A DNA stretch of 64,000 nt from an uncultured Candidatus Micrarchaeota archaeon. GTDB lineage: Archaea > Micrarchaeota > Micrarchaeia > Anstonellales > Bilamarchaeaceae. The DNA lies in NCBI GenBank assembly GCA_903835385.1, contig CAILMQ010000046.1:4861-68860 (forward strand), written 5' to 3'. This document shows, in pieces, positions 1-39,311 of the stretch (position 1 is the stretch's first letter; every line of letters begins with the position of its first letter). The position numbers and the translations under genes were made by a program. The notes under the pieces are model-generated. The model ran no database searches. It was not told the DNA's origin and saw only the letters and a program-made list of their open reading frames with translations.

Positions 1-3000
1 CCCCTCTCCGACCAGGGTGGCTGACGTGGACGACGTCATCTGCCATACGTCGTTGCTCGTGGCTCCGGATTTCTGCCTTTCCCATGCCGTGGCTGCGAGC
101 TCGCTCGCCTGCACGCCGTACCATTCGCCGACCTCAGGTATGTAACTCGGCGCGAGCAGGTACGCCTTGTTCATGGCAAGCAGCGGCAAAACCGCGGGAA
201 TGGGCAGCATGAGCCTGCCCTCTATGGCCTTTTCCACGAAGAAGCGCCTCTCCGTGCGGAGTATGTCCGGGACCGCCTGCGACGAATCCGTGACCGGAGC
301 CGCCTGGCGCATTTCCAGGATGAGCTGTGCGGACACCACGGTCTCGTAAACATGCTTCGGTATCTGGACCACGATGCGGGCGGCCGGTATGAAAAGCTCG
401 GCGTACTGGCTCTGCTCCGTGGGCTTGATTATGCGCACGTCGGTGTACTCCTCCTTCACCTCGTCCTTGAGCGTGAATATGTCCGTGAAGAGCTTGTTCA
501 GCTTTCCGGGAAGCGAGTTGTAATAGGAGCCTAGCTCGCGGTAGTGGCCGCCAGGATAGAACACGCTGCTGTATCCGGATATGACGCCGAGTATGGCTGC
601 TATGGAATTCGGGTCGTAGCTGAGCAGGCCCCAGGACCTGTGCTTGCCTTTGCTTGGCGCCGCCTCGTCCACAGGCACCTGTGTGTCGCCGCTTATGCGC
701 TTGAGCAGCAGCGCGGCATGCGAGCCGGGTATGTTCCTGAGCCCGAGCACGGTCGCCCCGAACCTGGCCCATGTGGTGTTGTCCCAGGCTGCGATTGCGG
801 GGTTTATCTGCCTGAACTGCCGCAGCAGCTCGTACTGCGTCTCCAGCGACAGCGAATTGAAGGCGTCGTACACCTCTCCGCCCGCGTTCATTGACACGGT
901 CGGCTGGAGCGGCTGCTGCTGGCCTGGCACCTTCTGGGAGAACTGGTACTCGATTGTCTTGGCCTTGAGCTCCGAGAGCAGGAAGCTGCGGTCAACGAGG
1001 AAAGCGGAATCCCCAGTTATCTTGAGCAGTGCTGCGGGAAACGAGGAATAGCCTTTCTTGTTGCTTTCCTCCTCGTGCCAGTCCGAATAGAGCTGTATTG
1101 CGAGGCGGTCCCTGAACTCGGGCTTGAGCTTGCCGAGCACATCGTCTATGAGGCGTATCTGCGAGGCCCAGAATTCCGCTGCGCCTTTGGCGCCCGTGAC
1201 GTTTTCCGCGCCCAGGGCGTCTATTTTGACCGCGGTCTGGCTTATTGCCTGGGACAGCGTGGCCTTGAAATCGCTGGAGACCGGCATGGTGAGGCCGTCG
1301 ATGTTCTTCTTCAGCGCGTCCATCTGGCTCTTCATCAGGTCCGTGGATGACAGGTTGAGATATACCGTCCTGACATAGGCGAGCGTGGCCTTGAGGTTCG
1401 CCACGTTCGTCCTGATTTCCTGGATGTCGAATCCGCTTGCCTGCAGCCGCGTGGTGTAGAGCCAGCCGAGGTCCCTCATGGCCTTTGTGGAGTCCATTGA
1501 GACCAGCAGCGCTTCCATCCTGGCTATCCAGCCGTCGGTTATGGAATATGCATAGCTGAGGGGATTGCCCGTCTTGGGGTCCTTGCCGTTATAGATGCGG
1601 ACCAGGGTCCGAACGTCCATGTCCGCGCTCCTGACCACGAGCTCCATGGTTTCCGCTGTCGGAATGTTCCGGAACAGTACGTCGGCCTCGGCGTAGGAGG
1701 AGCCCCTCTGCCTGAGCACCTGCAGCCTCTCGGACCATTCGTCCAGATGCACCCGCACGCGCGGGTCCATGTTCATGCCCTTGGCCTTGAAATAGCTTTC
1801 CAGCGCTTCGAGGTCCCTCTGGGCGCTGTCCAGCTTCTCGTTTGTCTGCTCCTGCGTGTAGACTTTCTTTGGCAGAACGAAGCTGATGGAAGAGCTTATG
1901 GCGTTCACGAATTCCGCGCCGTATTTCGGATGGAACCGCGCGGGTTGCGGGGAGGACGATTTCAGGTCGTCGTACACCGACTCCACGGCGCGACAGAACG
2001 CAGCCGCGGACTTCTCGTCCCTGAGCTGGCCGAACCTTTTCTCGTATTCCGAGACCATCCCGGCCAGCTTCGCGGAGGAGGAAACTTCGTCGTGGAACGC
2101 CACGGCGAATGCCGCGCCCGCCATCTGCCATGAGCGCACGAACTGGAACGTGTGGACGTTGTCCTTCGGGTCCTCGAGCACATGCTCCAGGTACGACACC
2201 GCCTTCTTCGCCCGCTCGCCTTCGAGCTTCGATGCCAGGTAGGACAGCATGGGCGCGGAATACTTGTCAGCCATCCATTTGAGCGCGTCCGGCCCCTGCT
2301 TCCGCAAATCGGCCAGGGCTCCGGCCACGGAATCGCAGAATGCGCCGTAGTCCACGTAGCGCATGCCCTGTTTTTTTGCCAGGGCGTCCGCCGCCTCCTG
2401 GAGCGCGGGCGCGCGCTTGGACAGCTCCGACTGCAGCGATGCGATGAACGCCGCCTGCCTTTCGCTGAGCTCGGCCGGCTTGAATTTCTGGATTTCCTTG
2501 TGCCATGCCTCCTTGAACGCGGTTAATCTGCTTGCATCGGCGCTATCCGCGAAGTCCGCGAGCGCCGCGGCTGCCGCTGCCGCGCTCGCGCCTTTTTTCA
2601 TGGTGCTGAACTCCTCCACGAATGCCGAACCGTATTTCCTTTTCACGCGCTCGGCGTCACCCGTGTCCAGCGCATCCCGGGTGTCGATGGACGCGTCCAT
2701 GAAGGAGGCCATGCCCACCGCCGCCTTCTGCAGCGGCTTCTCGCCTTTGGAAAGGTTCTTGTTGTAGGCGTCCACCCGGGCGTCGTCTTTCTCCTGGAAA
2801 CGGGCCGCTGCCTGGGCGAGTGCCGGGTCGGCCCTGAGCTCCTCTGCCCTGGCTTCGAACGAGCCGCTAAAGCGCTTGTCGGAACCGTATATGTCGCGGA
2901 ACTTCTTCAGGCGGCCGTAGTCGTCGCCCGCACCCGTGGCGATGTATCTCTTCGCCGCCTCGTAGGTCCGGTATGCGAGGAATTCTATGAAAAAGACGTC

Positions 3001-3342
3001 GTATTTCTTTTCCATGACCCTGAAGTTCGGCAGGCCCTTGTCAATGAATTCGTTGCACTCTGCGAAGGCAGCCACGAGCGCGTCCAGGTCCGCGGTCTTC
3101 TTTTTGGTGTAGGCGGCGAACGTGGTGAGCAATGGCGCGATTCGCGCATCGCCCTTGATGGCGGCCCTGTACTGGTCCCCGAAACGCTTGAGGAAATCCC
3201 CGTTACCGCTCCATTTGTTCCAAAGCGCCTGGAAATCGTTCCTGCTTTTGGTGTCTCCGAGCATGAACTGCTTGAGCGACTGCACCGCCGCATCCGCGGC
3301 GTCCTGCGGACTTTTGCTTTCTGCCAGAATGGATTCTGCCAT
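1..3342 (-). CDS. Large orphan protein, fifth gene of the giant-protein operon (C-terminus beyond window start; 1114 codons in window)
   Basis: Absent from the ORF track because there is no stop in the window. Manual translation of the minus strand from ATG 3342..3340 (MAESILAESKSPQDAADAAVQSLKQF...) reads stop-free to position 1 (...ATLVGEG). GGGTGA Shine-Dalgarno-like motif lies 8 nt upstream. All listed ORFs in 134..3508 are short Arg/Gly/His-rich shadow frames. No recognisable domain. Confidence 0.75.
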   Translation of the reverse strand, partial: MAESILAESKSPQDAADAAVQSLKQFMLGDTKSRNDFQALWNKWSGNGDFLKRFGDQYRAAIKGDARIAPLLTTFAAYTKKKTADLDALVAAFAECNEFIDKGLPNFRVMEKKYDVFFIEFLAYRTYEAAKRYIATGAGDDYGRLKKFRDIYGSDKRFSGSFEARAEELRADPALAQAAARFQEKDDARVDAYNKNLSKGEKPLQKAAVGMASFMDASIDTRDALDTGDAERVKRKYGSAFVEEFSTMKKGASAAAAAAALADFADSADASRLTAFKEAWHKEIQKFKPAELSERQAAFIASLQSELSKRAPALQEAADALAKKQGMRYVDYGAFCDSVAGALADLRKQGPDALKWMADKYSAPMLSYLASKLEGERAKKAVSYLEHVLEDPKDNVHTFQFVRSWQMAGAAFAVAFHDEVSSSAKLAGMVSEYEKRFGQLRDEKSAAAFCRAVESVYDDLKSSSPQPARFHPKYGAEFVNAISSSISFVLPKKVYTQEQTNEKLDSAQRDLEALESYFKAKGMNMDPRVRVHLDEWSERLQVLRQRGSSYAEADVLFRNIPTAETMELVVRSADMDVRTLVRIYNGKDPKTGNPLSYAYSITDGWIARMEALLVSMDSTKAMRDLGWLYTTRLQASGFDIQEIRTNVANLKATLAYVRTVYLNLSSTDLMKSQMDALKKNIDGLTMPVSSDFKATLSQAISQTAVKIDALGAENVTGAKGAAEFWASQIRLIDDVLGKLKPEFRDRLAIQLYSDWHEEESNKKGYSSFPAALLKITGDSAFLVDRSFLLSELKAKTIEYQFSQKVPGQQQPLQPTVSMNAGGEVYDAFNSLSLETQYELLRQFRQINPAIAAWDNTTWARFGATVLGLRNIPGSHAALLLKRISGDTQVPVDEAAPSKGKHRSWGLLSYDPNSIAAILGVISGYSSVFYPGGHYRELGSYYNSLPGKLNKLFTDIFTLKDEVKEEYTDVRIIKPTEQSQYAELFIPAARIVVQIPKHVYETVVSAQLILEMRQAAPVTDSSQAVPDILRTERRFFVEKAIEGRLMLPIPAVLPLLAMNKAYLLAPSYIPEVGEWYGVQASELAATAWERQKSGATSNDVWQMTSSTSATLVGEG

Positions 3343-3399
3343 AGCCTGTTTCACCCGTGAGTTGTCATTGCTGGCCAGGTTCGGGCCAGCGTGCCTCGG

Positions 3400-4695
3400 T
3401 CAGAGCGGGACTTCATATCTGACCGCCTTTTTTTCAGGTTCCTTTTTCCACGCGGCGGCCGGCCTGTCCCTGTTCTCCGGCTTTATGCGCCAGCAATATG
3501 CCGCGTAGGCGCAAAAAAGCGCGCGGTCCGCAATGCCGTCCGCCTTGAGCGGGGTGTACTCAACGCCCATGTCCGCCCTGAATCTGTTGCTCGTCTTGAC
3601 ATTCTGGTTCAGGTATTCCTGCAGGAGCTTCACGACCACAGATGGTTCCATGGCCGCCGGCACCTTCTTGCCCCCTTCCCGGGTCACCAGCATGAGCCCC
3701 ACCTCGCGCTCGTGCATGCGCACCGTGCGCTTGCCTGCAAGGTCCATGAGCCTGTCGTAGGCGTCGTCCCGCTCATTGCCGGTGACGCGCTTGAACTCGT
3801 CCTTCTTCATGGCTATGAATTTCTCGAACAAAGGGTCATTTTCCTTGAGGTGGTTGAACAGCGACTGGACGAGCAGGTTGAGGGTTTCCATCCGCACCTG
3901 GGACGGCAGCGCCGCAGCGAAGTCCTTTTTGCCCGGACCCTTCTCGAATTCCGCCAGGCCGCGGGGATCGCCTTTGATGAAGGCGCCCACCTTCTCCACT
4001 ATGGTGTCCGCGTATTTCCTTATCCCGGCTGCGGTCTTGAGCGGCGCATCCACGACAGGCACCTCACCTTTCTCCGCCTGCGCCTCTTTCCTGTCCAGCG
4101 GCATTTCCGGCCTGAGGTCCAGCTGGTTCTCGGGATTGCCCTTGTTCCAGCGCCAGAGGTAGGCCGCCGCAGCCACGAGCGTGTCCGCGTCAAGGGGCGC
4201 GATTGCGCCGTCACCCTCGGGTTTTTTGAGCGGCGCAATCTCGCTTGCGTAGAGCTTGTTACCCGAGGCGACATAGTCGAAGAGGAAGCCCCTCACCAGG
4301 CCCATGCGCTCCGCGTCGGATTCCGCACCCTTCATGACTGCGAGCGTCGTGTCGCGCTTTTTTTTCTCCATGGCGTTCGTTACGCCGGCGACTACGATTG
4401 CAGATACCTCCTCGCGGTTCTTTTTGGTTGCGAGCAGCTTCTCGAGCCCGGCCTTGCTTCTTGCCAGGGTGATTATTGCCTCGGGGTCGTGCGCGTTGAG
4501 CGCCTTCCTGACAGTGCCCATGCTGACTTCCATTGGCTCCGGCTCCTTTGCCCGCTTCTTCCCTGAAGCCGGCTTGTCGGCACGCTCTGCCTTCGGGACT
4601 GCTGGCACCGGCGTGGCGCCCTTGGTGGTTTTCGGCTTGGTGGTTTTCGAAGACTTGGTTCCCAGCATGCTGTCCCAGTCGAGACTGTCTGCCAT
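3400..4695 (-). CDS. Orphan protein, 431 aa, Lys/Pro/Thr-rich N-terminus; fourth gene of the giant-protein operon
   Basis: ORF track. The ATG lies 1 nt after the TGA of the upstream gene (GGAGGGAAATGAcATG at 4693-4710), so SD and coupling are present. The antisense 391-aa ORF is a shadow frame. No known motif. Confidence 0.7.
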   Translation of the reverse strand: MADSLDWDSMLGTKSSKTTKPKTTKGATPVPAVPKAERADKPASGKKRAKEPEPMEVSMGTVRKALNAHDPEAIITLARSKAGLEKLLATKKNREEVSAIVVAGVTNAMEKKKRDTTLAVMKGAESDAERMGLVRGFLFDYVASGNKLYASEIAPLKKPEGDGAIAPLDADTLVAAAAYLWRWNKGNPENQLDLRPEMPLDRKEAQAEKGEVPVVDAPLKTAAGIRKYADTIVEKVGAFIKGDPRGLAEFEKGPGKKDFAAALPSQVRMETLNLLVQSLFNHLKENDPLFEKFIAMKKDEFKRVTGNERDDAYDRLMDLAGKRTVRMHEREVGLMLVTREGGKKVPAAMEPSVVVKLLQEYLNQNVKTSNRFRADMGVEYTPLKADGIADRALFCAYAAYCWRIKPENRDRPAAAWKKEPEKKAVRYEVPL

Positions 4696-4696
4696 G

Positions 4697-7600
4697 TCAT
4701 TTCCCTCCTTGTTTCAGCCGGTCGGCCGTGTTGTTGATGAACTCCCGGAAATCTTCAGTGAGCGCCGGGACTTTCACGGCAATGCGACCCCCTTTCTTCG
4801 CCTGCGTAACCTTGATGCCCCTCTCTGACAAAGCATTCTTTCTCTCAATGCCCTCCTGCGCTATCATCACTGCCAGGTTCCTTGTGACCTTGGCTGCGTA
4901 CTGCTTGTTTTCAGCGGTCAGCGCGGCGGCCACGCTCCTGCTGAGTGCGGCTTCAACTGCCATGACGCTCGACTCCTGGTTTGCGGTATCAGTGACGAAC
5001 TTCCCGAAGGCTGCGGATTCCGCCTTGGCTGCAGGCCTGGGGGTTTCAATCACAAGCCCGGCAGGGCCCCGCTTTACCGTGATGCCCGCGCTTGCAAGGG
5101 CCTGGTTGTTGGCATCGTCGTTTGCGAGCGCCTTGTCAACTGTTGATTTGAAGACCGCGTCCCGGACCTGTTTCTCTTTCGGTTTCCACTGCGTTTCGTT
5201 CCTGCCCGGGTAGAGCGCCTCTCCGATTGCCTGCCTGAGCAATGCCTCGCTCTCCGCGGTCACCACGGGTGTCGCTTTTGCAGGGATGCCTGCTTCCCTT
5301 GGCATGACATCGCGCGCAGTCCAGCTCATGAACGGCTCTGTTGTCTGGACATACCAGCGCTCGTGCAACGGTGCCGGTTTAAATCCGACCATGGTATTGC
5401 CGGCACTCCATGCTTCATTGTACCATTTGGCGCGCGCCTCCTCTTCCGCGACATAAGATTTCTGGAGGTTGCTGACCAGGGTGTTGCATATCTCATATAC
5501 GCTGTCCTTGCCTTCGGAAACCTTTCCAATGAACATGGAGCGGTTCCTCTGGAATTCCTTCACCAGCTCAGGGCCGTTCTTTATGTGCTGCTTGTGGTCC
5601 TTGAGCCATTTCAGCATGCCATTGCCTTTTGCGTCCGAATTCAGGTAAACGAATTCTATCAGCCCCCTGTCAAATCCGGGCTTGCTTTCGTCAAGCGGAG
5701 TCAGGCGGGCGAATATCTCGTCGGCGACCGTGTGCTGCGCCCTGGCCTTGTCCAATGAGAGCGTGCCTTCGGCAACGCGCCTCACTATCGTGGGCACGTT
5801 ACCGTAGATTGCCTCTTCCGGCCCGAGCCTGAAGTCATTGAGCCTCTTCGCGGCTTCCGGGTCGGATGCGTATTGCACGAGCATGGCCTGGAAACCAGCC
5901 TTGATTTTCTCGTCATCACGCGAAGTCGCGTACTGGTCATAGAAGTCCATGAGCGAGCCGGCCGGTATCGGCGTTTTAAGCAGGTAGATGGAAGTTATGC
6001 CTGCTTCGGCAAGCGAGTCGCGCACCGAGGGAAGGGTTTCATAGTTCAAAGTCTTCCGCTTCGCCAATTGCCCCTGTATCGCTTCGAGAGTCAGCTGCCC
6101 ATTGGTCTTGCCGGCGCTGGCGCTTCCGGTTTCATCGCTGATTGCCGCGTATATCTGCGATGCGACATCCGCGGCAAAGGTGCGCGGCAGGGAGCCGTCA
6201 CGAATCCCCACCCAGAGCAGCGTGAATAGTTCGGTGTGGTTGGCGCCCAGCACGGTTGCTTTCAGGTAGTTAATCATATCGCGCGTGAGATTGAGCTCCT
6301 TTCCGAAGCGTTCCATGAAGAGTTCGCCCGGAGTGAGGAAGTACCCCTTTTTCCTCCAGTCCCCGGTTACCCTATCATCGAGCGCTTCCTTGATTTCATC
6401 GTCGCTTTTTCCCTGCTGCCTCATGGTTTTTATCAGGCCGTCGACTTCGGCTGCAAGTTCGTTTATGTTGGCCGGGTGTATGAAAAGCCCCGGCCTTTTC
6501 AGCAGCGCATTGAGCTGCGCCTCGTTCTTGGGCGACAGGTCGTCGGCAAGCTTGGAAGAATTGCTGTAGAGGAGCTTGTTGGTAAAGAAGTCTTCCGCCA
6601 CCTGCGAACCCTTCATTTTGTTGGCTGTCTCAATCTTGATGCCCACGTTCCAGGTTTTCGCGAGTATTTCCCTGGCTGCCTCGCGCTCGCGCGCGGTCTT
6701 GCCCCAGGTGAAGTATTTTATGGCCTGGTAGCTCAGGGCCAGGCCGCCCGCGGCCAATATCGTGAAGATCGCGCCCCTGGCAATCCTTCTCGCCCTGACG
6801 CCAGAGACCCTGGCCTCCGCGAATTCGTCGAGCGCCATGCCCGAGGGCACGGCGACCGGAGACGCCCCGAACTTGCCGAGCCTGTACGCTCCCCTGGCAC
6901 CTGCCTCGACGTTCTCGCCTATGGCCGGGAGTATGCCCCTTGCGAATTTTGCCCTTCCCAGACTGGCGGCGCGTATCGCGTTGGCAATCTCCGTGGTGCT
7001 CTGGTCCAGCACGCGCCTGGCTTCGAGCGTGGCGACAAGATCATGATGTTGCCCCATGGCGCCCAGAAGCGTTACAAGATCGGATGCAGTGCTGGGAGCC
7101 GTGAAGGCGGTGCCGATTCCTGAGAGCGCTGTTTCCATTTCCTTAATGGTGTTTGCCTTGGAAAGCTCGGTGAGCAGGGCATTGGAACCAGGACCCAGAG
7201 CCCTGCGCAGGTCCTCCCTGAGAGCCTCGTTCTTGAATATTCCGACTATGGTTTCATCCGCACTGGCCACCGCGCCCGAGGCGAGGCCCTTATCGATTTC
7301 CTGGAGTACGCGCACGCATGCGGGGTCATTTGATTGAAACGACGCACGAAGGAATGTTCTCGCATCACGCGCAAGATTGTTGTAAGCCTGGACCACGGCG
7401 CTCCTTGGCACGATGTTCTTGGAATTGAGCTCAAGCATGAGCGCCGCGTGCTCCTGCCGCGTGATCAGGCCGGCGCCGAATCTCGCGTTGATGACGGCAA
7501 TTGGGTCTGCCTCGCCTTTTCCGATTATCCTTGCCATCCTGACTATCTGGTCGTCCTCAAGCTTCAGCATATCGGGCTTGCGCCTCGCGAGCTGGATGTA

Positions 7601-8155
7601 ATCCGCCGGCTGGACGCGTGCTTCCTTGGCAGACGCGGCAATCACATCCTGCATGAACGGGCGCAAACCCCTGGCGATAACCGGGTCGTTTGATTGGCTG
7701 ATACGGGCAAGCACGTCTTTCCTGAGGTAAAGCCGCTCCAGTATGTCGTAGAGCGAAGCCGTGGTGTCCTTGTCCAGCCTGCCGGTCTTCAGGTGGAGAT
7801 AGACTTTCTTCATTATCTCGAGCGTATCGTCGGCGCTCAGCGCCTTTATCCCTTCCCTGTATTTCTGGCAAAGCGATTTCATTTCCTCGAGGTCGGCGTA
7901 TAAGGAGCGGCCTGCGAGGTTCTTGGCCTCCTTCGCAGCCTGCTTTGAGCGCTTAGCAATGGCTTTATCCATAGCTTTCTGAGCCGCCTTCGCAGGATCG
8001 TAACCGAACACTTTTCTCCCGGCCCGGGTCCAGACTGGAGGCACTGCTTGTGGCGCTGCCTGCGCCTGTGTAGTTGCCTGTGTCGCTGCCTGTGCCGTTG
8101 CATTAGCCGCCGCCTGCTGAGCCTGGTTCGCCATAGCATCACGTCTTTGTTTCAT
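4697..8155 (-). CDS. Giant orphan protein, 1152 aa, Q/A/T low-complexity N-terminus, one central hydrophobic helix
   Basis: ORF track. ATGA overlap with the upstream gene at 8152-8155. Hydrophobic segment RGAIFTILAAGGLALSYQAIKYF is encoded near 6715-6790. No Walker, protease, nuclease or signal-peptide motif seen. Confidence 0.75.
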   Translation of the reverse strand: MKQRRDAMANQAQQAAANATAQAATQATTQAQAAPQAVPPVWTRAGRKVFGYDPAKAAQKAMDKAIAKRSKQAAKEAKNLAGRSLYADLEEMKSLCQKYREGIKALSADDTLEIMKKVYLHLKTGRLDKDTTASLYDILERLYLRKDVLARISQSNDPVIARGLRPFMQDVIAASAKEARVQPADYIQLARRKPDMLKLEDDQIVRMARIIGKGEADPIAVINARFGAGLITRQEHAALMLELNSKNIVPRSAVVQAYNNLARDARTFLRASFQSNDPACVRVLQEIDKGLASGAVASADETIVGIFKNEALREDLRRALGPGSNALLTELSKANTIKEMETALSGIGTAFTAPSTASDLVTLLGAMGQHHDLVATLEARRVLDQSTTEIANAIRAASLGRAKFARGILPAIGENVEAGARGAYRLGKFGASPVAVPSGMALDEFAEARVSGVRARRIARGAIFTILAAGGLALSYQAIKYFTWGKTAREREAAREILAKTWNVGIKIETANKMKGSQVAEDFFTNKLLYSNSSKLADDLSPKNEAQLNALLKRPGLFIHPANINELAAEVDGLIKTMRQQGKSDDEIKEALDDRVTGDWRKKGYFLTPGELFMERFGKELNLTRDMINYLKATVLGANHTELFTLLWVGIRDGSLPRTFAADVASQIYAAISDETGSASAGKTNGQLTLEAIQGQLAKRKTLNYETLPSVRDSLAEAGITSIYLLKTPIPAGSLMDFYDQYATSRDDEKIKAGFQAMLVQYASDPEAAKRLNDFRLGPEEAIYGNVPTIVRRVAEGTLSLDKARAQHTVADEIFARLTPLDESKPGFDRGLIEFVYLNSDAKGNGMLKWLKDHKQHIKNGPELVKEFQRNRSMFIGKVSEGKDSVYEICNTLVSNLQKSYVAEEEARAKWYNEAWSAGNTMVGFKPAPLHERWYVQTTEPFMSWTARDVMPREAGIPAKATPVVTAESEALLRQAIGEALYPGRNETQWKPKEKQVRDAVFKSTVDKALANDDANNQALASAGITVKRGPAGLVIETPRPAAKAESAAFGKFVTDTANQESSVMAVEAALSRSVAAALTAENKQYAAKVTRNLAVMIAQEGIERKNALSERGIKVTQAKKGGRIAVKVPALTEDFREFINNTADRLKQGGK

Positions 8156-9888
8156 TCTTTATCGAATCTGTCCATCATTTCGAAGTATCTTCTGCGCATG
8201 TCCTCTTCCGTCCTTATTGCCACCGGATGCTGCGCCTCGTTTGCGCGCGCGTTGGCTATCACGCCATACACAGCGTCCACCGCAAGCGGGAACGTCGCGC
8301 GCATCACGCCGTACTCAAGGAGCCTGTGCATCGGCGCGTAGCGGAACGCCGACGCGTATTCGGGCAGCATCCTCGCAAGGCCTTCCTGCACGCCGTCCCT
8401 GCGCAGCTGCGCGACGATTCTTGGCCAGCCGTCCGTTTCCACGAGCCTGAGCAGGGCGCGCTGCGGTGCGCGGCTGAACGAGGTGACCGTATAGAACATT
8501 GCATCGGACGCGAGGCGCCGGGAAGCAAGGGGCATTCCCGAAGATACAAGCGATTCCGCGAGTTTTTTTGCGGCCTTGTGGTCTATGTTCATCCGCAGCT
8601 CGTTGAACAGCTCTGCCGCCACTTTTTTCCTGAACCTCAGTGTTCCGGGCATGCTCAGCCCGTTCTCCAGGAAATCGACTGTTCCGGCCTTGAGCCTCCA
8701 GGCAGCGCGGCCGAGTTTCGTCGTTCCGGCCTGCTCGCGCAGATAGCTGCGGATGACATCGCCCGTTATCTCGCTGTCTCCTGCCGTGAGCGCCAGGTCC
8801 CCGAACACCCGCGTCCAGCCAAGGCCCTCGCCCTGCGCAGGCCTTGCCAGCCTGAAGAGGTCGTTGAGCTCGCCGCTTTTCAGCTCGCGGACCGCGGTCT
8901 CGAACACGTCCCGCTCCATGGGGGACATTGCGAGCCTGCCTTCGCCTTTCGCGAATGAATCTATCAATTCCCTGCCGGTTACGCGCGCGACTGTTCTCGT
9001 TGCGAGCTGGCCAACGAGAACGACATCCATGCCTGCCATGGTGAGGTTCAGCGTGATGCTGCCCGCGCCTTTCCAGCTCGCGCCCTTGTCCCACATCACC
9101 CTGACATCGGTTACGGCCGCCTCCAGGGAAGGAATCACAGGCACGAACATGTCATAAAACTCCTTGAACGACATCTCAACCCTCACGCCTTTGGGAGTGG
9201 CTACGCCCCTGCGCTCTATTTCGCGCTCCAATGTGAGGACGGATTCCGGAACCGCCCTTCCGCCCTCGCCAACGAAAACCCTCTCTCCGTGAAGAAGGTC
9301 AATCCCGGCCCTGGGCAGTTCCATTGCAGGCCTTTTCCAGCGCGGCATCGCCTCGCCTTCCTGCGCCCCGATTGTGGCATAGGGCTTTGGCTCCATGTCC
9401 TTCATGGCCTGCTTCTGCCGCTTGTCCCACGAGGCGTGCATGTCTGTCGCCACTTCCACGACAGCCTGCCAGCGCAGCTCGCTGCCGATGTAAACATTCC
9501 TGTAGGAAGGGTCGTCCATGAAATTGTTTATTCCAGCTGCCGCGAGTTTCTTGTACAGCTCGGAACACTGGGCGGACAGTTTCTCAAGCTGGCTTATTAT
9601 TGGCTTCTCCCTTCCCAATCCCTGGTTCATGAGCATTGCGAGGAATTCGTCGTCGTATGGCGGCCTTCCGAGGAGCCGCGATTCCCAACCGCCCATTTCG
9701 ATGTTTGCGGCCTTGGCTGTTTCCAGCCTCTGCTTGAGGTATTCGAACTGGCGCTCCAGCGCCCTGAGCTGGCCGCGCAGCTCCTCCACTTCCTTCTTCC
9801 TGGGCACCACTCCGAGTGAGGTCTTCAGTGGTAATGTCTGTTCCGCCTCAGGTTGTTTCTTTTCCCGGGCGAAAGTGGGTCCCGCCAT
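8152..9888 (-). CDS. Orphan protein, 578 aa, N-terminal coiled-coil-like segment; second gene of the operon
   Basis: ORF track. Heptad-like EELRGQLRALERQFEYLKQRLETAK near 9700-9800. TATA-like box 27 nt upstream of the ATG. No known domain. Confidence 0.7.
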   Translation of the reverse strand: MAGPTFAREKKQPEAEQTLPLKTSLGVVPRKKEVEELRGQLRALERQFEYLKQRLETAKAANIEMGGWESRLLGRPPYDDEFLAMLMNQGLGREKPIISQLEKLSAQCSELYKKLAAAGINNFMDDPSYRNVYIGSELRWQAVVEVATDMHASWDKRQKQAMKDMEPKPYATIGAQEGEAMPRWKRPAMELPRAGIDLLHGERVFVGEGGRAVPESVLTLEREIERRGVATPKGVRVEMSFKEFYDMFVPVIPSLEAAVTDVRVMWDKGASWKGAGSITLNLTMAGMDVVLVGQLATRTVARVTGRELIDSFAKGEGRLAMSPMERDVFETAVRELKSGELNDLFRLARPAQGEGLGWTRVFGDLALTAGDSEITGDVIRSYLREQAGTTKLGRAAWRLKAGTVDFLENGLSMPGTLRFRKKVAAELFNELRMNIDHKAAKKLAESLVSSGMPLASRRLASDAMFYTVTSFSRAPQRALLRLVETDGWPRIVAQLRRDGVQEGLARMLPEYASAFRYAPMHRLLEYGVMRATFPLAVDAVYGVIANARANEAQHPVAIRTEEDMRRRYFEMMDRFDKE

Positions 9889-9910
9889 GGTATAATATGG
9901 AGGGCAAAAG

Positions 9911-9920
9911 AATATAAATA
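9911..9920 (-). promoter_or_regulatory. TATA-like box (TATTTATATT on minus strand) inside the giant operon
   Basis: Only A/T-rich block in the 65-nt gap 9889-9953. Its centre is 27-28 nt from ATG 9888, the spacing seen at many genes in this window. No SD precedes this ATG. Confidence 0.45.
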
Positions 9921-9953
9921 CGGGAGAAAATTGGAAAAAAGAAGGAAATGCCG

Positions 9954-12900
9954 CTACTTCTGCGGCATGAGCTGCTGGAGCTTGGCGACAAGCGCTTTCC
10001 TCAGGCCGTCTTCGCCTTTGTCGAACTTCACGGCCGGAGCCGCGCCCTTGGCGCCGGCAGTCACGGCCATGCCGAAGGACTTGCGCTGCGCGGCCTTGTC
10101 CGCGTCCGTGCCTGTCGCAAGCTCATAGACGTGGTCGAGCAGGTGCTGCTCCAGGTCGGTGATGCCGGCCCTCTTCATGGCCGCCTGCACCGCAGCTATC
10201 TTCGCCAGGTTCGCGGCCATGGTGTGGACGCTTGCCTGGACCTTGTCGTTCGCCTTCCAGAAGGCGGCCCTGGCCCCTGCGTCGTTCACTGCGTATTTCG
10301 CCTTGATGGCCGCCTGGGAGCCGGCCTCGCCGGCAGAGGGCTTGCCCTTGAGCGCGTCGATTTCCCTGTCGACCTGCTCGATGTTTCCCTTGAGGTCATT
10401 GACCTGGGATTCCAGCAGCGCCTTTTGGTCCCATTTGCCGTCTTTCTTGTTCAGGGCGTCGAGCTGCGCCTTCTTTTCCTTCATCTTCGCGTCAAAGGTG
10501 ATGCGGCTTTTCTTCAGCTCTTCTATCTTAGCCTCTTTCTCGGCTTCGGCCTTCTTGAGCTCCTGTAGCTTATCTTCCTTCTCCTGGTAGGTTGCCTTGG
10601 CCGTCTGCTCGGCCTGCCGCGTGCCCCAGTCGACTATGAAGCCCATCCTGACGGCCCGTGCGGACAGGCGGCCCGGCTTCTCGAGCGTGGGGTCGAAGTC
10701 CCATGCCGAAATGCCCGGGCTCTTCTCCTTGTGCATCCTGAGATCCTGCACGAACTGCGGGAGCGCCTCGGTCCTTATCACGTAGTCCGTCCTCGGCTGG
10801 GTGAGCTTTTCAAGCAGCGCTTTGACATCCTCATTGCCTTTCTTGGCCACGAATGTCGCATCCTCGGCGCCGAGGCCGAATGTTTCGCCGGCCCTTGCGC
10901 TCGCCGCGGTCGCCTTGTGCGCCTCGTGATCCGCCAGCTTTTCCTCGAGCAATCCCTTGGCCTGCGCCTCTTCGGCGATTTGCGCATACACGACATCGTG
11001 CAGCAGCCGCACCCGCTCTTCGCTTCCGACTGCGTTCCACAGCGTGGAAAGGTCTGCCGGATTTTTCGGGCCTTCCAGGTAGGCCTTCACGGAAATGAAG
11101 AAATCCGCCCGCTTCTCATCCTGTTTCGCGTCATTCTGCTTCCTCGCCTCGGCAAGGTGGCTGTCCACGTCGAACCGCCTGAGCACCGTGATTGCGGTGT
11201 CCCCGGTTTCCACGCATACCTCGGACATGTTGCCTTCGCCTGTGGCTGCCTGTATTCTCGCAATGGCATAGCCGACAAGGCGGTCCGCGTTGGTCGCATT
11301 TTCGCCCGGCTTGCAGGGCGCTATGTGCAGGGGCTCAGCGCCGAGCGAAGCCCATGCCGCCACCTGCCTGGACAGGACCGGATTGACGAAGAGGAAGTCC
11401 GCGTTGCCCTTCTCATGCACTCCTAACTGCGCATATTGCGCGTCCATGCGCCTCTGGACAAATCCCCTCCTCGCCCACTCGGGCTCGTTCTGCCTGAGCC
11501 AGGCGAGGGTCACGTGCGCGCCCCTGTTGTCGCGTTCCCACTTGTATTCGGCGGATTCCGGCTGGCTGGGCGCCGCCCTGGCGGCGCCTTCGGAAAGGCT
11601 CTTCACAAGCCCCACGAACGCGTCCGTGTGCGACGGGTCCAGGATGTTCGTTCCTGCGGAGACTTCGTCGGCCACTGTTGCGCGAGTCACGCCCATGACC
11701 GGCATGCCCGCGCTCTTCTTGTCATGCGCTATGGATGTTATCCTCCTGTTGCCGCGGCGGAGCTCGTCGAAATAGGTGAGCGCGGATGGAACCCTCTCGC
11801 CCTGCTGCCATGGGGACGGTTCGAGGTTTTCCTCCTGGAGCCATTCCACGGCGCGCGCCCTCTCTTTCGGAGTCATCGTCCTGCCGATTCCTAAAAGCGC
11901 GCCCAGCTCGTCTGAGCCGAACCTGTGCGGGTCTGCAAGGTCCTGCGGCAGGTCCTGCCTCATGGTTCCCTGGGCAACCTGTTCGCCGCCCTCGTTGCTG
12001 AAGTTGTAGCCCCAGTTCCTTGGGTTGATGACCTGCCTTTTCCAGCCGCTAAAAACCTCTCCGTGTATAGGATTGCACCACCTCGGGGCTATTATCATCT
12101 CATCCCTGCCCCGGGCAAGGTCGACTCCGGCAACAGCGGCCCAGACCGAAGCCCCGACCGCGATTTCACCGAAAAGCACGCCGGTCAGGCCCTGCCTCCT
12201 GTGGCTGAGCCACTCTCCCTTGGTTCTCATGAGTTCCCTGTCCGCTTCCATGGCTTCGTTCCTGAGCCTGCGGTAGGAATTCCAGCGCTTGACTTCTCTC
12301 GTGAGCGGGTTGCAGGGCCTTATGGCCGCCACTGCAGCGGCCCATTTGGCCGCGAGTTCGGCTTTCGTATCATTGCTGCCATAGTGCGCCACGAAATCAC
12401 GTGCGCACGCCACGCGCGCAGGCTTGTCCGTTGCCGCGTCGTATGCCCTGAGGAAAGCCAGCCTGTCCCTGAGGGAAAGCGAATATTCCGCGGCGAGCTT
12501 CCCGTAGTTTCCGAAGAGAAGGCCTTCTCTCCAGGCGTCCTGGAAATGCTTAAGCCTGCTCAAAACAGGATTCGCGACATACTTCAGGTACAGCCCGACA
12601 GGCCAGGTGACAACCGCGTGCCAGCCGTTTTCCGTGCCCCATTTGATGAACCGCAGCATCCTGAGCCACGCTTTTTTCAAAGATATCGGCTTTGCATTGC
12701 ATCTGCCTTCATAGACATTAAGCGCTATTATCCTCTCGTAAAGCGGAAGTTCGCCACGCGCCTGCCGTGCCGGGCTTTTCTCAAGCAGGTCGAGCATTTG
12801 CTCGGCAATGGCCCTGAGCGGATAGCGTATTTTATGCTCGAACCGGTCAATCGCCTTTGCCGCCCGGTCCTGGGCGTCGGTGCTTTCATCGGCATGCAGC

Positions 12901-14240
12901 GCCCTGACCCTCTGGACCAGTGCGCAGAGCTCGGTCTTCACTGCGCCGGTGACTGGGATTGCATCCAGTTCGTCGAGCAATCTCCCTATGACTGCAGCGT
13001 GCGCCTGTTTCATCTCGCTTCTTTCATTGGCGTCAGGAGCAGGGCCCAGCAGCGTTTCCCTGATTTTGAGCTCGCTCCTTATCCTGCTCATCAGGTCCGA
13101 AGCGCCCTGCGGCAGGACCGAGGATTGCACTCTCTCCAGGCGCTTGAGCATGACATCGAATTTCTCCCGGTCCGTGGCCTTAAGCATGTCACGCCGTATC
13201 CCATCCGAAAGTCTCTGTACGATGGGTTCTGCTTCTGCCGGACCCAGGCCAAGGCCGGGCACTCTGGAACTCGTATGCAACTGGTCTGCAGCTCCTGAAA
13301 GCGTTTCCCGCGCTGAATCCGAAAACACACGGACGAACCTGCCGACCGCCACGCGCCTCGTAAGGTAATCCTTTGCAATGTCCGGATTGAGCAGCATTGG
13401 AATTTCTTCCTTTTCTGTGCCGTACAGCCTGCGCCTTATCTCGTCAACGTCTGGATCGAATGAGCATTTCCCCGCGAGTTCCCTGAATACTGTGCCTATG
13501 TATTTGCCGGGCTCGGTTACATCGGGATCTTGGGCTTCCATCTCGAGGAAATTGAAGAACGCGTCCCTGGGGTTCGGAACACTGCCATGGGACCAGCCCT
13601 CCCACACCGAGGTCCTGGTATCCGGCACCACGTCCCTGCCAACGCATGCGAAATAGATTATTTCAAGATCAAGCATGTCAGGATTCTCAACCCTGCCGCC
13701 CTGCCTGAGGGCTGCGGCGAGTTTCTGCCTCCTTGCCGCTATCTGGACTCCATATGCCGTGTCAGGCCCTTCAACCGGAGTCCTAAAACTGACCGTTTCC
13801 TGCCTGAGGGTGCCGATTGCATCAGTTACCTGCACCCCCCGCCCGCCATTTTCTATGGCATCTATGAACTCCGGGGTGCTGAGCACCTGCAGGAGCTGCA
13901 TTCCCCCGTCGCCCGGCTCCCTGGACTGGCCGGTCCTGAGCGTGTCCAGGAACTCGTCATTGAACTTTGAAAAGTATCCGGAAGTCGCGGTCTCGTCGTG
14001 CCCGGGCTGTGCGATCTGCTTTCGCGGGCTGATTGGAGCCGGGGGCTGGCCCGTCTGTGTAGACTGGAGCACCTGCTGCACTGCGGCTCCGACAGCGGGG
14101 CCCATGGCTTCCGCGGTGAATTGCGCCTGCTTTCTTTTTGAAGCGTCGGTCAGGGGAACGTGCGACCAAACTGCCTTTGCCGCCATCGCTGCTCCATGCC
14201 CCAAGCGCTTCATGCCATGCCCTGTCTTGCCCGCCATCAT
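9954..14240 (-). CDS. Giant orphan protein, 1428 aa, first gene of the operon; one weak hydrophobic helix, long C-terminal Lys/Glu coiled coil
   Basis: ORF track. Hydrophobic GLTGVLFGEIAVGASVWAAVAGV near 12112-12195. Coiled-coil-like QEKEDKLQELKKAEAEKEAKIEELKK...NDLKGNIEQVDREIDALKG near 10340-10600. The 457-aa antisense ORF 11925..13298 is a shadow frame. Confidence 0.75.
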   Translation of the reverse strand: MMAGKTGHGMKRLGHGAAMAAKAVWSHVPLTDASKRKQAQFTAEAMGPAVGAAVQQVLQSTQTGQPPAPISPRKQIAQPGHDETATSGYFSKFNDEFLDTLRTGQSREPGDGGMQLLQVLSTPEFIDAIENGGRGVQVTDAIGTLRQETVSFRTPVEGPDTAYGVQIAARRQKLAAALRQGGRVENPDMLDLEIIYFACVGRDVVPDTRTSVWEGWSHGSVPNPRDAFFNFLEMEAQDPDVTEPGKYIGTVFRELAGKCSFDPDVDEIRRRLYGTEKEEIPMLLNPDIAKDYLTRRVAVGRFVRVFSDSARETLSGAADQLHTSSRVPGLGLGPAEAEPIVQRLSDGIRRDMLKATDREKFDVMLKRLERVQSSVLPQGASDLMSRIRSELKIRETLLGPAPDANERSEMKQAHAAVIGRLLDELDAIPVTGAVKTELCALVQRVRALHADESTDAQDRAAKAIDRFEHKIRYPLRAIAEQMLDLLEKSPARQARGELPLYERIIALNVYEGRCNAKPISLKKAWLRMLRFIKWGTENGWHAVVTWPVGLYLKYVANPVLSRLKHFQDAWREGLLFGNYGKLAAEYSLSLRDRLAFLRAYDAATDKPARVACARDFVAHYGSNDTKAELAAKWAAAVAAIRPCNPLTREVKRWNSYRRLRNEAMEADRELMRTKGEWLSHRRQGLTGVLFGEIAVGASVWAAVAGVDLARGRDEMIIAPRWCNPIHGEVFSGWKRQVINPRNWGYNFSNEGGEQVAQGTMRQDLPQDLADPHRFGSDELGALLGIGRTMTPKERARAVEWLQEENLEPSPWQQGERVPSALTYFDELRRGNRRITSIAHDKKSAGMPVMGVTRATVADEVSAGTNILDPSHTDAFVGLVKSLSEGAARAAPSQPESAEYKWERDNRGAHVTLAWLRQNEPEWARRGFVQRRMDAQYAQLGVHEKGNADFLFVNPVLSRQVAAWASLGAEPLHIAPCKPGENATNADRLVGYAIARIQAATGEGNMSEVCVETGDTAITVLRRFDVDSHLAEARKQNDAKQDEKRADFFISVKAYLEGPKNPADLSTLWNAVGSEERVRLLHDVVYAQIAEEAQAKGLLEEKLADHEAHKATAASARAGETFGLGAEDATFVAKKGNEDVKALLEKLTQPRTDYVIRTEALPQFVQDLRMHKEKSPGISAWDFDPTLEKPGRLSARAVRMGFIVDWGTRQAEQTAKATYQEKEDKLQELKKAEAEKEAKIEELKKSRITFDAKMKEKKAQLDALNKKDGKWDQKALLESQVNDLKGNIEQVDREIDALKGKPSAGEAGSQAAIKAKYAVNDAGARAAFWKANDKVQASVHTMAANLAKIAAVQAAMKRAGITDLEQHLLDHVYELATGTDADKAAQRKSFGMAVTAGAKGAAPAVKFDKGEDGLRKALVAKLQQLMPQK

Positions 14241-14264
14241 AATATGCCCACCTCTAGTAATCGT

Positions 14265-14272
14265 ATTTTATA
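14265..14272 (-). promoter_or_regulatory. TATA box (TATAAAAT on minus strand) upstream of the giant-protein operon
   Basis: Centre is about 28 nt from ATG 14240. A second TTTAAAAA lies at 14297-14305, and a GAGGTGGG SD-like motif at 14247-14254. It is unclear which box is used. Confidence 0.5.
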
Positions 14273-14359
14273 GCAAAAGATGTTTTATCGTAAACGCTTT
14301 TTAAATGTATCTGTATGTGGAAAGAACAGTAAATAGGGCATGTGGCCCGCGATGACGGT

Positions 14360-15763
14360 TCAGGACAGTATCCTTTCGGCCATCTTCTTCGCGTCGAAGC
14401 GCTCGATGTCCTCGTATTTCTGGCCCGTCCCTATGTAGATTATGGGGATGCCCGTGGCCTTGGACACGGAAAGCACCGCGCCGCCCTTGGGGTCGCAGTC
14501 CAGCTTCGTGAGTATCACGCCGTCCACGCCGATTTCGCGGTTGAACGAGGACACCTGGCCGATTATGGACGAGCCCGCTATGGACTCCCCGACATATATC
14601 TTCAGGTCCGGCTTTATGACGCGGTCCATTTTTTTCAATTCGTTGATGAGGTTCACGTTCGTGTCCTGCCTGCCGGCGGTGTCGATGAGCACCGCGTCCA
14701 TGCCATGGGCCCTGGCGTAGTTCACGGCGTCGTAGGCCACGGACGTGGGATCCGAGCCGTATTCCCTTTTTATGAGCCTGACGCCGAGCTTCGTGGCGTG
14801 GATTTCCATCTGTTCTATGGCCGCTGCGCGGAACGTGTCAGCCGCGGCGAACACGACCTTGCAATCGTTCTGCATGAGCATGTGCGCCACCTTGGCGATG
14901 GTCGTTGTTTTTCCTGCCCCGTTTATGCCCAGGAAAATTATTTTCACCGGCTTCTCCTTGGTTCTCACCTGCTCAAGGATGTCCAATGGCTCGCCCACCG
15001 ACATCGTGTCCAGCAGGGTGCTGGCCATGGCGTCCTTCACGAACTGGCTGAGCTGGCCCTTGCCCACCTTCGCGCCAACGAGCTTCTGCGCCAGTTCCTG
15101 CCTTATGGACTCGGCGACGCCCAGCTCCACGTCGCTTTCCAGAAGCTCCAGCTCGAAGTTCTCCAGAAGCGATTTCACGTCGTCCTCGGATATCTCGACC
15201 TCTCGCGTGACGAATGATTTTATCGCCTTCAGGGGGTTGAGCGAGACCTGGGATTTCTTTTCGCGCTCCTTCTCGTCATGGAATTGCGGGAGCGAGACGG
15301 CTGGTTCGGGTTTTTGCGTTTCGGTTTCGGGCTTGGGTTTCGTTTCTGTTTTTATTTCCGGCTGGGGTTGCGGTCTTGGCTTCGCCGCGGCCGCGATTTC
15401 GGGTTTTGGCTTTTGTTTTTCTATTTTCGGCTGTGGTTTTTTTTCGAACGCGATTGCGGGTTTTGGTTTTTCTTTTTCCATTGCGGGCTCTGGCGTTGTT
15501 TCTGTTTTCGGTTCCGGCTTTTGCTTTTCGATTTCCGGCTCCCGCTTCTTTTCGAACGCGATTTCGGATTTTATTTTTTCTTTTTTGATTTCAGGTTTTG
15601 GTTTTATTTCTGGTTCTGGTTCCGGTTTCGTTTCTACTTCCAGTTCTGCCTTAGTTTCAATTTCCGGCCCCGGCTGCGCCTCGGCCTGCTCGGCTTTCGC
15701 CTCCCCCTTGCCACTGAGGCCGTCGATGAACCCGCTTATCTTTTTCTTTAGGAAATCAAACAT
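14360..15763 (-). CDS. ftsY: Signal recognition particle receptor FtsY with about 170-aa Lys/Pro/Glu-rich N-terminal extension
   Basis: SRP54-type GTPase motifs (FLGINGAGKTTTIAKVA, DTAGRQ, TKLD). Sits at the end of the conserved pfdA-ftsY string. Confidence 0.95.
   Translation of the reverse strand: MFDFLKKKISGFIDGLSGKGEAKAEQAEAQPGPEIETKAELEVETKPEPEPEIKPKPEIKKEKIKSEIAFEKKREPEIEKQKPEPKTETTPEPAMEKEKPKPAIAFEKKPQPKIEKQKPKPEIAAAAKPRPQPQPEIKTETKPKPETETQKPEPAVSLPQFHDEKEREKKSQVSLNPLKAIKSFVTREVEISEDDVKSLLENFELELLESDVELGVAESIRQELAQKLVGAKVGKGQLSQFVKDAMASTLLDTMSVGEPLDILEQVRTKEKPVKIIFLGINGAGKTTTIAKVAHMLMQNDCKVVFAAADTFRAAAIEQMEIHATKLGVRLIKREYGSDPTSVAYDAVNYARAHGMDAVLIDTAGRQDTNVNLINELKKMDRVIKPDLKIYVGESIAGSSIIGQVSSFNREIGVDGVILTKLDCDPKGGAVLSVSKATGIPIIYIGTGQKYEDIERFDAKKMAERILS
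15415..15630 (-). repeat. In-frame 108-nt tandem duplication within the FtsY low-complexity N-domain
   Basis: TTTTCGAACGCGATT recurs at 15441 and 15549. The protein units are KSEIAFEKKREPEIEKQKPEPK and KPAIAFEKKPQPKIEKQKPKPE. Confidence 0.7.
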
Positions 15764-20149: not shown

Positions 20150-20467
20150 ATGGCAACCAGTGCGCCGGGGCAGGAAAAGAGGGCAGCCGTTTCCGAAGGG
20201 AAGCTGGACGAGATAGAATCGGACACTCTCAGGAACGCGGCCAGGACGGTCTCGATCATAGAGAATGCCATTTCAGCATGGAACGCAGCGAAGGTGAAGC
20301 CCAGGAACATGGCAAGCGCCCTTGAGAGGCTGAAGAGATTCCGCACCGCGCTCGTGAGATGGGGCGCGGAATGCGCCGTGCTCCGCGCCGGGCGCGCTGA
20401 CATGGAACACCGCGTGGGCATGCTACGCGAGTTCGTTGAAATCTGCTACGCCTACGAGAACGCATGA
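20150..20467 (+). CDS. Small helical orphan protein (about 105 aa), coupled to the 1613-aa gene
   Basis: In-frame ATGs at 20144 and 20150. The stop overlaps the next ATG (GCATGA at 20462-20467). The first 27 codons of the ORF-track call overlap the divergent gene and are rejected. Confidence 0.55.
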   Translation: MATSAPGQEKRAAVSEGKLDEIESDTLRNAARTVSIIENAISAWNAAKVKPRNMASALERLKRFRTALVRWGAECAVLRAGRADMEHRVGMLREFVEICYAYENA

Positions 20468-39203: not shown

Positions 39204-39311
39204 GGGGTCATAGTATAACTAGGTAGTACGGCAGGCTCCAGATCCCGCCTTCTTACGAAGGCACAATGAGGCCGACACCTGCATATCGGAGTTCAAATCT
39301 CCGTGACCCCA
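39204..39311 (+). tRNA. tRNA-Trp (anticodon CCA at 39238-39240) with about 35-nt intron at the canonical 37/38 site (39242-39276)
   Basis: Manual fold. Acceptor GGGGTCA/TGACCCC, D-stem GTAT/GTAC, anticodon stem GCAGG/CCTGC interrupted after CTCCAG, T-arm CGGAG-TTCAAAT-CTCCG. T7 tract at 39324-39330. Confidence 0.8.

Follow-up and report, generated by a model that had tools for sequence, protein, structure and literature searches.

A cluster of giant protein genes without a described family, fixed beside ftsY in Micrarchaeota

The 64,000-nucleotide stretch of DNA analyzed here (the window; positions 4,861 to 68,860 of contig CAILMQ010000046.1, assembly GCA_903835385.1) derives from an uncultured Candidatus Micrarchaeota archaeon and opens with five co-directional minus-strand open reading frames (ORFs), here called genes A to E, which occupy window positions 1–14240. 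We find that the block forms a chromosomal gene cluster, specific to Micrarchaeota and conserved by vertical descent, that lies right after ftsY, the gene for the signal recognition particle (SRP) receptor, and that A–E encode more than 5,000 residues without a described family. Evolution of the cluster is modular: some lineages have A and others lack it, a single giant protein of ~2,700 aa that we term G2 takes the place of B and C in other lineages, D may or may not carry an SGNH hydrolase domain, and in E the N-terminus alone is conserved. We tentatively read it as encoding a lineage-specific, fast-evolving, membrane-anchored multi-protein assembly, plausibly placed at the symbiont–host interface. 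DPANN archaea account for a large share of archaeal diversity and are host-dependent, and the proteins with which they contact their hosts are almost unknown.

All cluster features are given in window coordinates and lie on the minus strand. Gene A (9954–14240; 1428 aa by ORF and translation) is the window's member of a giant, ftsY-linked Micrarchaeota family described here. It is followed by B (8152–9888; 578 aa), with an N-terminal coiled coil, a conserved core (aa 168–530) and a conserved hydrophobic helix; by C (4697–8155; 1152 aa), with a conserved hydrophobic helix and a G2-homologous region; by D (3400–4695; 431 aa), with a Lys/Pro/Thr-rich N-terminus and two related flanks; and by E, of which the window holds the first 1114 codons (1–3342), the frame being still open at its edge. 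The upstream neighbor of the cluster is ftsY (14360–15763; PF00448 at 1e-70). An earlier first-pass annotation of this DNA had reported five giant co-directional genes of these lengths, and we recovered the same ORFs. Its description of them as orphans stands insofar as no described family accommodates them; homologues do exist.

The synteny emerged from an ftsY-anchored scan across GTDB species, each represented by a single genome. It comprised 80 loci; the best matches were nearly all Micrarchaeota, placing the window in this phylum, and the top match was the complete 1.57-Mb chromosome OY970229.1 (FtsY 72% identity; L026 and L086 below, where L numbers designate loci and contigs). Iterative hidden Markov model (HMM) searching of these 80 loci recovered 15 A-family proteins of 1250–1560 aa, some of them cut by contig ends. 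In all 15 cases the gene follows ftsY directly and shares its strand, and these cases fall within the first-listed 19 loci, in metagenome-assembled genomes labelled Micrarchaeota or archaeon only. A was absent from the other 65 ftsY loci, which include further Micrarchaeota, Iainarchaeum, Nanoarchaeota, Woesearchaeota and Bathyarchaeia. Five A matches looked up independently of ftsY (L087–L091) likewise had ftsY immediately upstream in 5/5 cases, and A is thus directly downstream of ftsY in 21 of 21 contexts, the window included. The position of the cluster beside ftsY is constant in lineages of 40–62% guanine-plus-cytosine (GC) content; the lineage of metagenomic contigs was inferred from synteny.

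The genes beyond A are conserved in order as well. B, C and D recur in the window's order in at least seven further contigs at 23–77% identity; in L001, L026/L086 and L083/L084, identities are 66–77% for B, 47–60% for C and 35–40% for D. L001 carries ftsY-A-B-C and then reaches its contig end, and L083, L084 and L086/L026 carry ftsY, B, C, D and E', the counterpart of E (1665–1697 aa). More remote layouts comprise L088, with ftsY, A (2166 aa), B (693 aa), C (1327 aa; 25–33% identity in segments) and D (at least 563 aa); L090, with ftsY, A (1707 aa), B (906 aa), C (1069 aa), D with an SGNH domain (673 aa) and E' (1662 aa); and L089, with ftsY, A (1904 aa), proteins of 1261 and 798 aa that show no detectable relation to B or C, D with an SGNH domain (672 aa) and E' (1611 aa). 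The alternative arrangement ftsY-A-G2 was found in nine genome loci, in L091 it is followed by an SGNH protein, and L008 has a G2-like protein without A. The first-pass annotation had named absent or frameshifted homologues in related genomes as an outcome that would refute its reading; they are instead intact and collinear.

Three observations on these neighborhoods stand apart. In OY970229.1, the prefoldin and ftsY frames were called as one 619-aa product with Prefoldin and SRP54 domains (L086 8030–9889, equal to L026 9548–11407), which reflects either a gene fusion or a missed stop/start. On L082, a metagenomic contig of 47% GC, positions 1–6932 encode a B-like, a C-like and a second B-like protein in a row, B being duplicated. 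We considered whether L087 (ftsY-A) and L082 (B-C-B) belong to one genome and rejected this, given their GC contents of 61.5% and 47.1% and the lack of overlap.

Sequence divergence identifies A–D as real genes under constraint. The comparison across homologues of nonsynonymous to synonymous substitution rates (dN/dS, Nei–Gojobori), which the first-pass annotation had proposed, gave 0.31 for A, 0.19–0.35 for B, 0.35–0.44 for C and 0.64 for D, figures that are rough because dS was about 0.65–1.0 and thus near saturation. Since FtsY yielded 0.14–0.15 in the same genome pairs, compared with 0.19–0.64 for the cluster genes, selection is purifying but relaxed, or else these proteins evolve quickly. 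Divergence is unevenly distributed along the cluster. Between L083 and L086, identities are 82% for FtsY, 76% for B, 57% for C, 80% for D and 85.5% for E'; between the window and L083, they are 74% for B, 54% for C and 35–40% for D, and the resemblance of E is confined to its N-terminus. B and C of the window have therefore diverged from L083/L086 about as far as those two have from one another, and its D and E far more, a difference suggesting that the distal half D-E was replaced by a distant allele and that the cluster is a mosaic.

Gene A defines the family most sharply. A full-length syntenic homologue (P0002, on JGI contig L001) is 62% identical, an exhaustive HMMER search with A residues 1–1200 returned 17 matches among 1.84 billion representative proteins, and the local HMM recovers the window's A at an E-value of 2e-279. 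The five of the 17 matches that were scanned (P0007–P0010 and P0017) contain no Pfam domain. A word-indexed protein search, with either A or the 15-member alignment as query, retrieved only one homologue besides A, the prefilter probably having been swamped by low-complexity words, and a profile scan of genome contigs with the A alignment gave no match.

AlphaFold2 (AF2) modelling, which among the cluster proteins covered A alone, reached a mean predicted local distance difference test (pLDDT) score of 37 with 2 sequences and 72.8 with 18 sequences (alignment A8). The latter model is largely alpha-helical and resolves two confident domains joined by a long helix (aa 645–709) that contains a hydrophobic segment. 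The N-terminal folded domain (aa 88–510; 12711–13979; pLDDT mostly 75–93) is predicted to be cytoplasmic; the best-conserved part of the protein is the first ~240 residues of this domain (aa ~88–330; alignments A2 and A5), and the invariant residues of the family are P155, E157, R171, L174 and Y292. The C-terminal alpha+beta domain (aa 762–1200; 10641–11957; pLDDT mostly 79–95), predicted to lie outside the membrane, is matched by the homologues P0009, L089 and L090. It is followed by a Lys/Glu-rich coiled coil (aa 1209–1300; 10341–10616) with weak APG6_N, ASRP, SMC and LmuB matches only. Foldseek comparison of the model identified no relative in the PDB (best E-value 0.97, probability at most 0.12) or in BFVD (TM-scores 0.04–0.09; top matches were long helical phage proteins). 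As modelled, the two confident domains correspond to no known fold.

The central hydrophobic helix of A (aa 685–706; 12123–12188; Kyte–Doolittle 1.83) is a predicted signal-anchor transmembrane helix. Seven of the 15 A members show a hydrophobic peak of at least 1.5 in matching alignment columns, and in 13 of 15 the 15 residues flanking the helix contain more Lys+Arg on the N side than on the C side (means of ~3 and ~1), the C side being rich in Trp, Tyr and Pro. Because the segment holds a fixed alignment position and its flanks show this positive-inside bias, the helix is a probable signal-anchor with N-in/C-out orientation, and A very probably spans the membrane once, in agreement with the earlier prediction that the proteins are partly membrane-tethered.

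Genes B and C each encode one comparable segment. B homologues are 77, 74, 66, 46 and 41% identical to the window's B (alignment A7), the core being 41% identical in L088 and 32% in L090, and the conserved hydrophobic helix of B (aa 278–296; 9001–9057) contains an invariant Asp. The conserved helix of C (aa 458–479; 6719–6784) falls in the Kyte–Doolittle range 1.5–1.8. Both have basic residues on both flanks and could be buried or monotopic. The hydrophobic helices that the first-pass annotation had placed in A and C are thus present, albeit weak (Kyte–Doolittle 1.5–1.8, with a Glu in that of A), and its coiled coils correspond to A aa 1209–1300 and B aa 30–63; the latter, like the former, fits weak APG6, SMC and SlyX matches.

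C also links the two alternative forms of the cluster. Residues 218–1019 of C align collinearly with the last ~850 residues of G2 from L091 (E-value 3e-15), and the two have in common the motifs DWRK(K/R)G, LW.G...G.(L/I)P, NDF......EA(I/V)YGN and G.G(M/I)(L/M).WL. C is therefore homologous to the C-terminal third of G2. Full-length G2 in L091 has 2682 aa and is followed by a 767-aa protein with a GDSL_2 domain; across the G2 family, 2–3 hydrophobic segments are conserved. An hhalign comparison of B, C, D and E with G2 gave no match, a result that is misleading for C because the G2 sequences used there had been truncated at the 10-kb flank. A resemblance by eye between the N-termini of B and G2 was not confirmed by hhalign and was dropped. 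The C-terminal module of C (aa 961–1150; 4706–5275) recurs in L088, where the A-like protein (L088 1628–8128) ends in a copy of it: aa 1976–2139 match the HMM of this module at an E-value of 2e-28, a case of domain shuffling between cluster genes.

Two side observations concern the G2 family. G2 is one ORF in L013 (15316–20901) and three pieces, 84–87% identical, in L014 (15313–20903), the split being due to either assembly frameshifts or real gene fission. Beyond the ribosomal-protein string, the window contains a further giant ORF, F (20464–25305, plus strand; 1613 aa), which has no Pfam match and is 59–70% identical to a syntenic ORF in L026/L086. A weak hhalign link between F and the G2 family (probability 23%, E-value 9e-4), around a common hydrophobic segment, raises the prospect that F may be a relocated G2-like gene of the window's lineage.

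D is the point at which a recognizable domain enters the cluster. The D proteins of L089 and L090 contain an SGNH/GDSL_2 domain (PF13472; 44.5 and 43.4 bits, cut-off 32.9), which is the sole recognizable domain in the cluster across lineages. These D-family proteins (L089 22159–24177 and L090 12963–14984) display GAST, GGIND and LHP motifs, and the protein at the D position in L091 (20166–21789) carries an SGNH domain by precomputed annotation and matches the D profile weakly (E-value 9.5e-6). In the window, D has no Pfam match to PF13472; its two flanks are alike, each ending in an AAYxWR motif, and the insertion point of the SGNH domain is a short linker in D of the window, L083, L086 and L088 (alignment A9). 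Because the domain is inserted exactly where the window's D has this linker, the latter retains the non-catalytic flanks only, the SGNH domain having been either lost or never gained.

E is related to E' only over its first ~130 aa (nt 2953–3342), with a BLAST E-value of 2e-9 against L089 E' and an hhalign probability of 64% (E-value 7e-5). As the E' proteins of relatives measure 1611–1697 aa, the full E is expected to comprise about 1,600–1,700 aa, with ~500–590 residues encoded beyond window position 1.

Searches against known families were otherwise empty. Nothing significant was obtained for A–E in Pfam, PHROGs, NCBIfam or PADLOC, in line with the earlier statement that the window copies contain no catalytic or known structural domain, and profiles built from the A, G2, B and C alignments found no match among PDB sequences. 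The first-pass annotation had named a confident HMM or structural match to a known family as the outcome that would speak against novelty; neither the profile searches nor, for A, Foldseek produced one. A match of B aa 77–144 to Csm2 in the PDB profile search (E-value 0.006) was taken as helical noise and rejected. The only recurrent weak signal came from the Lys/Glu coiled coil of A, which matched SMC, ASRP, APG6 and LmuB at 10–18 bits (cut-offs 45–730; for ASRP, 18 bits against a cut-off of 300). With respect to specific systems, SMC, Rad50 and ASRP models matched only A aa 1210–1346 (10.6–18 bits; cut-offs 300–729), and Pfam contained no ATPase-domain match. Archaeal S-layer proteins have an N-terminal signal peptide and beta-rich, Ig-like extracellular domains; here no Pfam S-layer match was found, the N-termini are polar or low-complexity without a hydrophobic core, and the A model is largely helical. 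Pfam likewise revealed no SPEARE-type protease, adhesion or restriction-endonuclease domains in A–E or their homologues, and no toxin, protease or nuclease domain occurs anywhere in the cluster proteins checked. PADLOC defence models yielded coiled-coil noise only (LmuB and JetC, E-value 0.01 or weaker). No paralogy among A–F was detected by BLAST or hhalign, save E/E' and the weak G2/F link. A full-text search with incomplete literature coverage found no published description of the cluster, and an earlier one could still exist.

The junctions reported by the first-pass annotation were all read in the sequence. The ftsY-A spacer (14241–14359) contains a TATA-like element, TATAAAATA (14264–14272), and GAGGTG (14249–14254) before the ATG, and is probably A's own promoter region. 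The 65-nt A-B spacer (9889–9953) contains the TATA-like element TATTTATATT (9911–9920) and a terminator-like run of six T (9935–9940), and probably marks the start of a separate B-C-D-E unit. Downstream, B and C overlap by ATGA (8152–8155), C and D meet in TGAcATG with GGAGGG ahead, and D and E are separated by a 57-nt spacer carrying GGGTGA. Because A and B each have a TATA-like box and a T-run follows the stop of A, two transcription units (A; B-C-D-E) are more likely than a single operon. The earlier designation as an operon is accordingly right in treating the genes as a set, since A-B-C-D(-E) recur in this order beside ftsY in lineages of 42–62% GC, and falls short in that at least two units are predicted.

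The block has a GC content of 0.58–0.63, inside the range of the remaining window (~59% for the window overall), and its opposite strand contains many overlapping ORFs of 100–450 aa. No tRNA lies in or adjoining the block, nor is there a GC break. Elsewhere in the window, a 108-nt Rfam tRNA match (39204–39311, plus strand) that was not called by ARAGORN is presumably an intron-containing archaeal tRNA and, with the archaeal ribosomal genes, marks the source as an archaeon; two ORFs of 549 aa (34024–35673, minus strand) and 535 aa (40747–42354, minus strand) have no Pfam match.

How might these proteins act together? A would be a type-II single-pass membrane protein whose cytoplasmic part is a folded domain of ~650 aa, with a second folded domain of ~700 aa and the coiled coil lying outside. 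For B and C, attachment would be through one conserved hydrophobic helix each, D would be a non-enzymatic remnant of an esterase-carrying subunit, and E would dock through its conserved N-terminal module. Together, A–E would form a large membrane-anchored assembly in the envelope of a host-dependent archaeon, its most likely role being contact or exchange with the host cell. Conserved gene order and the sharing of modules between genes speak for such a complex. We favor this interpretation, as possible and still short of probable. The argument for a role at the host interface is indirect: the phylum to which the cluster is confined depends on hosts, the cluster takes up a large share of the genome and shows fast, modular evolution, some lineages encode an esterase domain, reduced symbionts offer a precedent and Micrarchaeota possess a 21-nm envelope complex (both discussed below).

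Several observations weigh against it. None of A–E has a signal peptide, and the domains predicted to lie outside show no clear enrichment of N-glycosylation sequons; together with the largely helical A model, this leaves the first-pass annotation's suggestion of a cell-surface apparatus without positive support. The proteins are also basic, Ala/Lys/Glu-rich and helical, like many cytoplasmic proteins. The hydrophobic helices are weak (Kyte–Doolittle 1.4–1.8) and contain Glu or Asp, that of A carrying a Glu, and several A-family members fall below the usual transmembrane threshold. The window's own cluster lacks an enzymatic domain, and the related genomes L083, L084 and L086/L026 dispense with A, ftsY being followed directly by B. 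The lack of signal peptides and of clear sequon enrichment, the largely helical A model and the weak, charge-bearing hydrophobic helices would suit a cytoplasmic scaffold, that is, soluble or peripheral alpha-helical structural proteins (cytoskeleton-like, or nucleoid- or ribosome-associated) without a direct host-contact role, in which the hydrophobic helices form a buried core. The net charges of C (+25) and D (+13), the Lys/Pro-rich tail of D, the basic residues on both flanks of the B and C helices and the tie of the cluster to the translation/SRP gene string would fit such a scaffold. We nevertheless consider it somewhat unlikely: the positive-inside pattern with an aromatic, polar C-flank at the A helix (13/15 members) and the 2–3 conserved hydrophobic segments of G2 argue against it, SGNH esterases such as that in D of other lineages are commoner in envelope or secreted proteins, and fast modular evolution would be unusual in a housekeeping scaffold.

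Alternatively, part of the set, D and E above all, could be exported effectors that reach or enter the host as cargo by way of cytoplasmic bridges or nanotubes and do not belong to a fixed machine. Evolution is fastest in the distal genes, which look exchanged (window D is 35–40% identical to L083/L086, and E is alike over ~130 aa only), the conserved N-terminal module and variable body of E recall polymorphic effectors, and D has an esterase in some lineages. This idea is very doubtful in view of the lack of toxin, protease or nuclease domains, of immunity-like small genes and of a secretion system encoded nearby, and E' is conserved like FtsY between L083 and L086. That the block is what remains of an integrated virus, plasmid or similar mobile element, whose large structural genes (tape-measure-like, for example) came to lie beside ftsY by chance, is highly improbable. 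In its favor are a weak tape-measure PHROG match to gene E (E-value 0.02), the long helical phage proteins among the top BFVD matches, which are offset by their TM-scores, and the gene content that differs between lineages. Against it, we found no integrase, transposase, capsid, terminase, flanking tRNA or GC break, a scan of viral contigs with the C profile was empty, and the ftsY-adjacent chromosomal site, among ribosomal and SRP genes, is constant across the GC range noted above; the earlier judgment that nothing indicates a mobile element is upheld. That the frames arose by chance in GC-rich DNA is refuted: long spurious ORFs do occur at ~60% GC, as the opposite strand of the block illustrates, but set against this are full-length collinear homologues at 23–77% protein identity, dN/dS well below 1 at dS ~0.8, conserved gene order and, in A, confident AF2 domains.

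The favored interpretation of a membrane-anchored assembly also has a stronger form, which we regard as quite unlikely: the cluster could encode the Micrarchaeota side of a host cell–cell connection, the envelope-spanning docking or bridging complex seen by cryo-electron tomography as the 21-nm barrel. A would then serve as a transmembrane spine and B/C (or G2) as the body close to the membrane; the variable parts facing the host would be E and D, the latter an esterase by ancestry. If true, this would provide the first molecular parts list for a DPANN–host cytoplasmic bridge.

Even if the host-interface idea is wrong, A–E are large, conserved new families of a poorly known phylum. About 16 kb, roughly 1% of a genome of probably 1–1.6 Mb, is devoted to one cluster, whose position and order are kept across lineages differing by 20 GC points, and the searchable families A, B, C/G2, D and E, together with the ftsY landmark, can be used in cultured Micrarchaeota, proteomics and cryo-electron tomography.

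Among known protein families, the SGNH/GDSL hydrolases (PF13472), characterized by Ser (GDS-type block I), Gly, Asn (GxND) and His (DxxH) blocks, are represented in D of L089 and L090 and in the post-G2 protein of L091, and the whole domain is missing from D of the window. SMC/Rad50 proteins, in which Walker A/B ATPase heads flank a long antiparallel coiled coil, resemble A through its ~90-residue Lys/Glu coiled coil, which gives the weak SMC, ASRP, Rad50 and LmuB matches; unlike them, A scores 10–18 bits against cut-offs of 300–730 and has no detected ATPase head or hinge. Among giant proteins of symbionts, SPEARE is reportedly a single protein of more than 5,000 aa with protease, adhesion and restriction-endonuclease domains, whereas A–E are five separate genes without a recognizable domain. 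The likeness, very large DPANN proteins in both cases, is phenomenological. As summarized in a later report, these giant proteins of Nanohaloarchaeota, encoded in a ~1-Mb DPANN genome, are thought to be host-interacting (Hamm et al. 2019, PMC6642349, in 10.1101/2025.05.02.651781).

A closer parallel is provided by Candidatus Sukunaarchaeum mirabile, in which a role at the host interface has been put forward for adjacent giant alpha-helical membrane proteins of function not known (10.1101/2025.05.02.651781). In both systems, an archaeal symbiont with a reduced genome encodes several proteins of more than 1,000 aa in adjacent co-directional genes, and these proteins are rich in alpha-helices, have predicted membrane segments, lack sequence homologues (in our case, outside their own group) and gave uninformative structure predictions. 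The Sukunaarchaeum proteins have at least four predicted transmembrane helices each, compared with at most one or two weak ones in A–E, and the cluster described here, unlike that of Sukunaarchaeum, is conserved in a sizeable part of its phylum and fixed beside ftsY. This likeness, too, is phenomenological, and no sequence relationship is expected. In the Micrarchaeota themselves, the envelope of ARM-1 displays a 21-nm barrel-like complex, of composition not known, that docks host nanotubes (10.1101/2024.05.20.594898). A giant, lineage-specific set of predicted membrane-anchored proteins is the kind of candidate sought for such a structure; the link is by inference only. Giant proteins of unclear role in reduced symbionts were thus known already, and what is new are the protein families, the modelled structure of A and the fixed linkage to ftsY.

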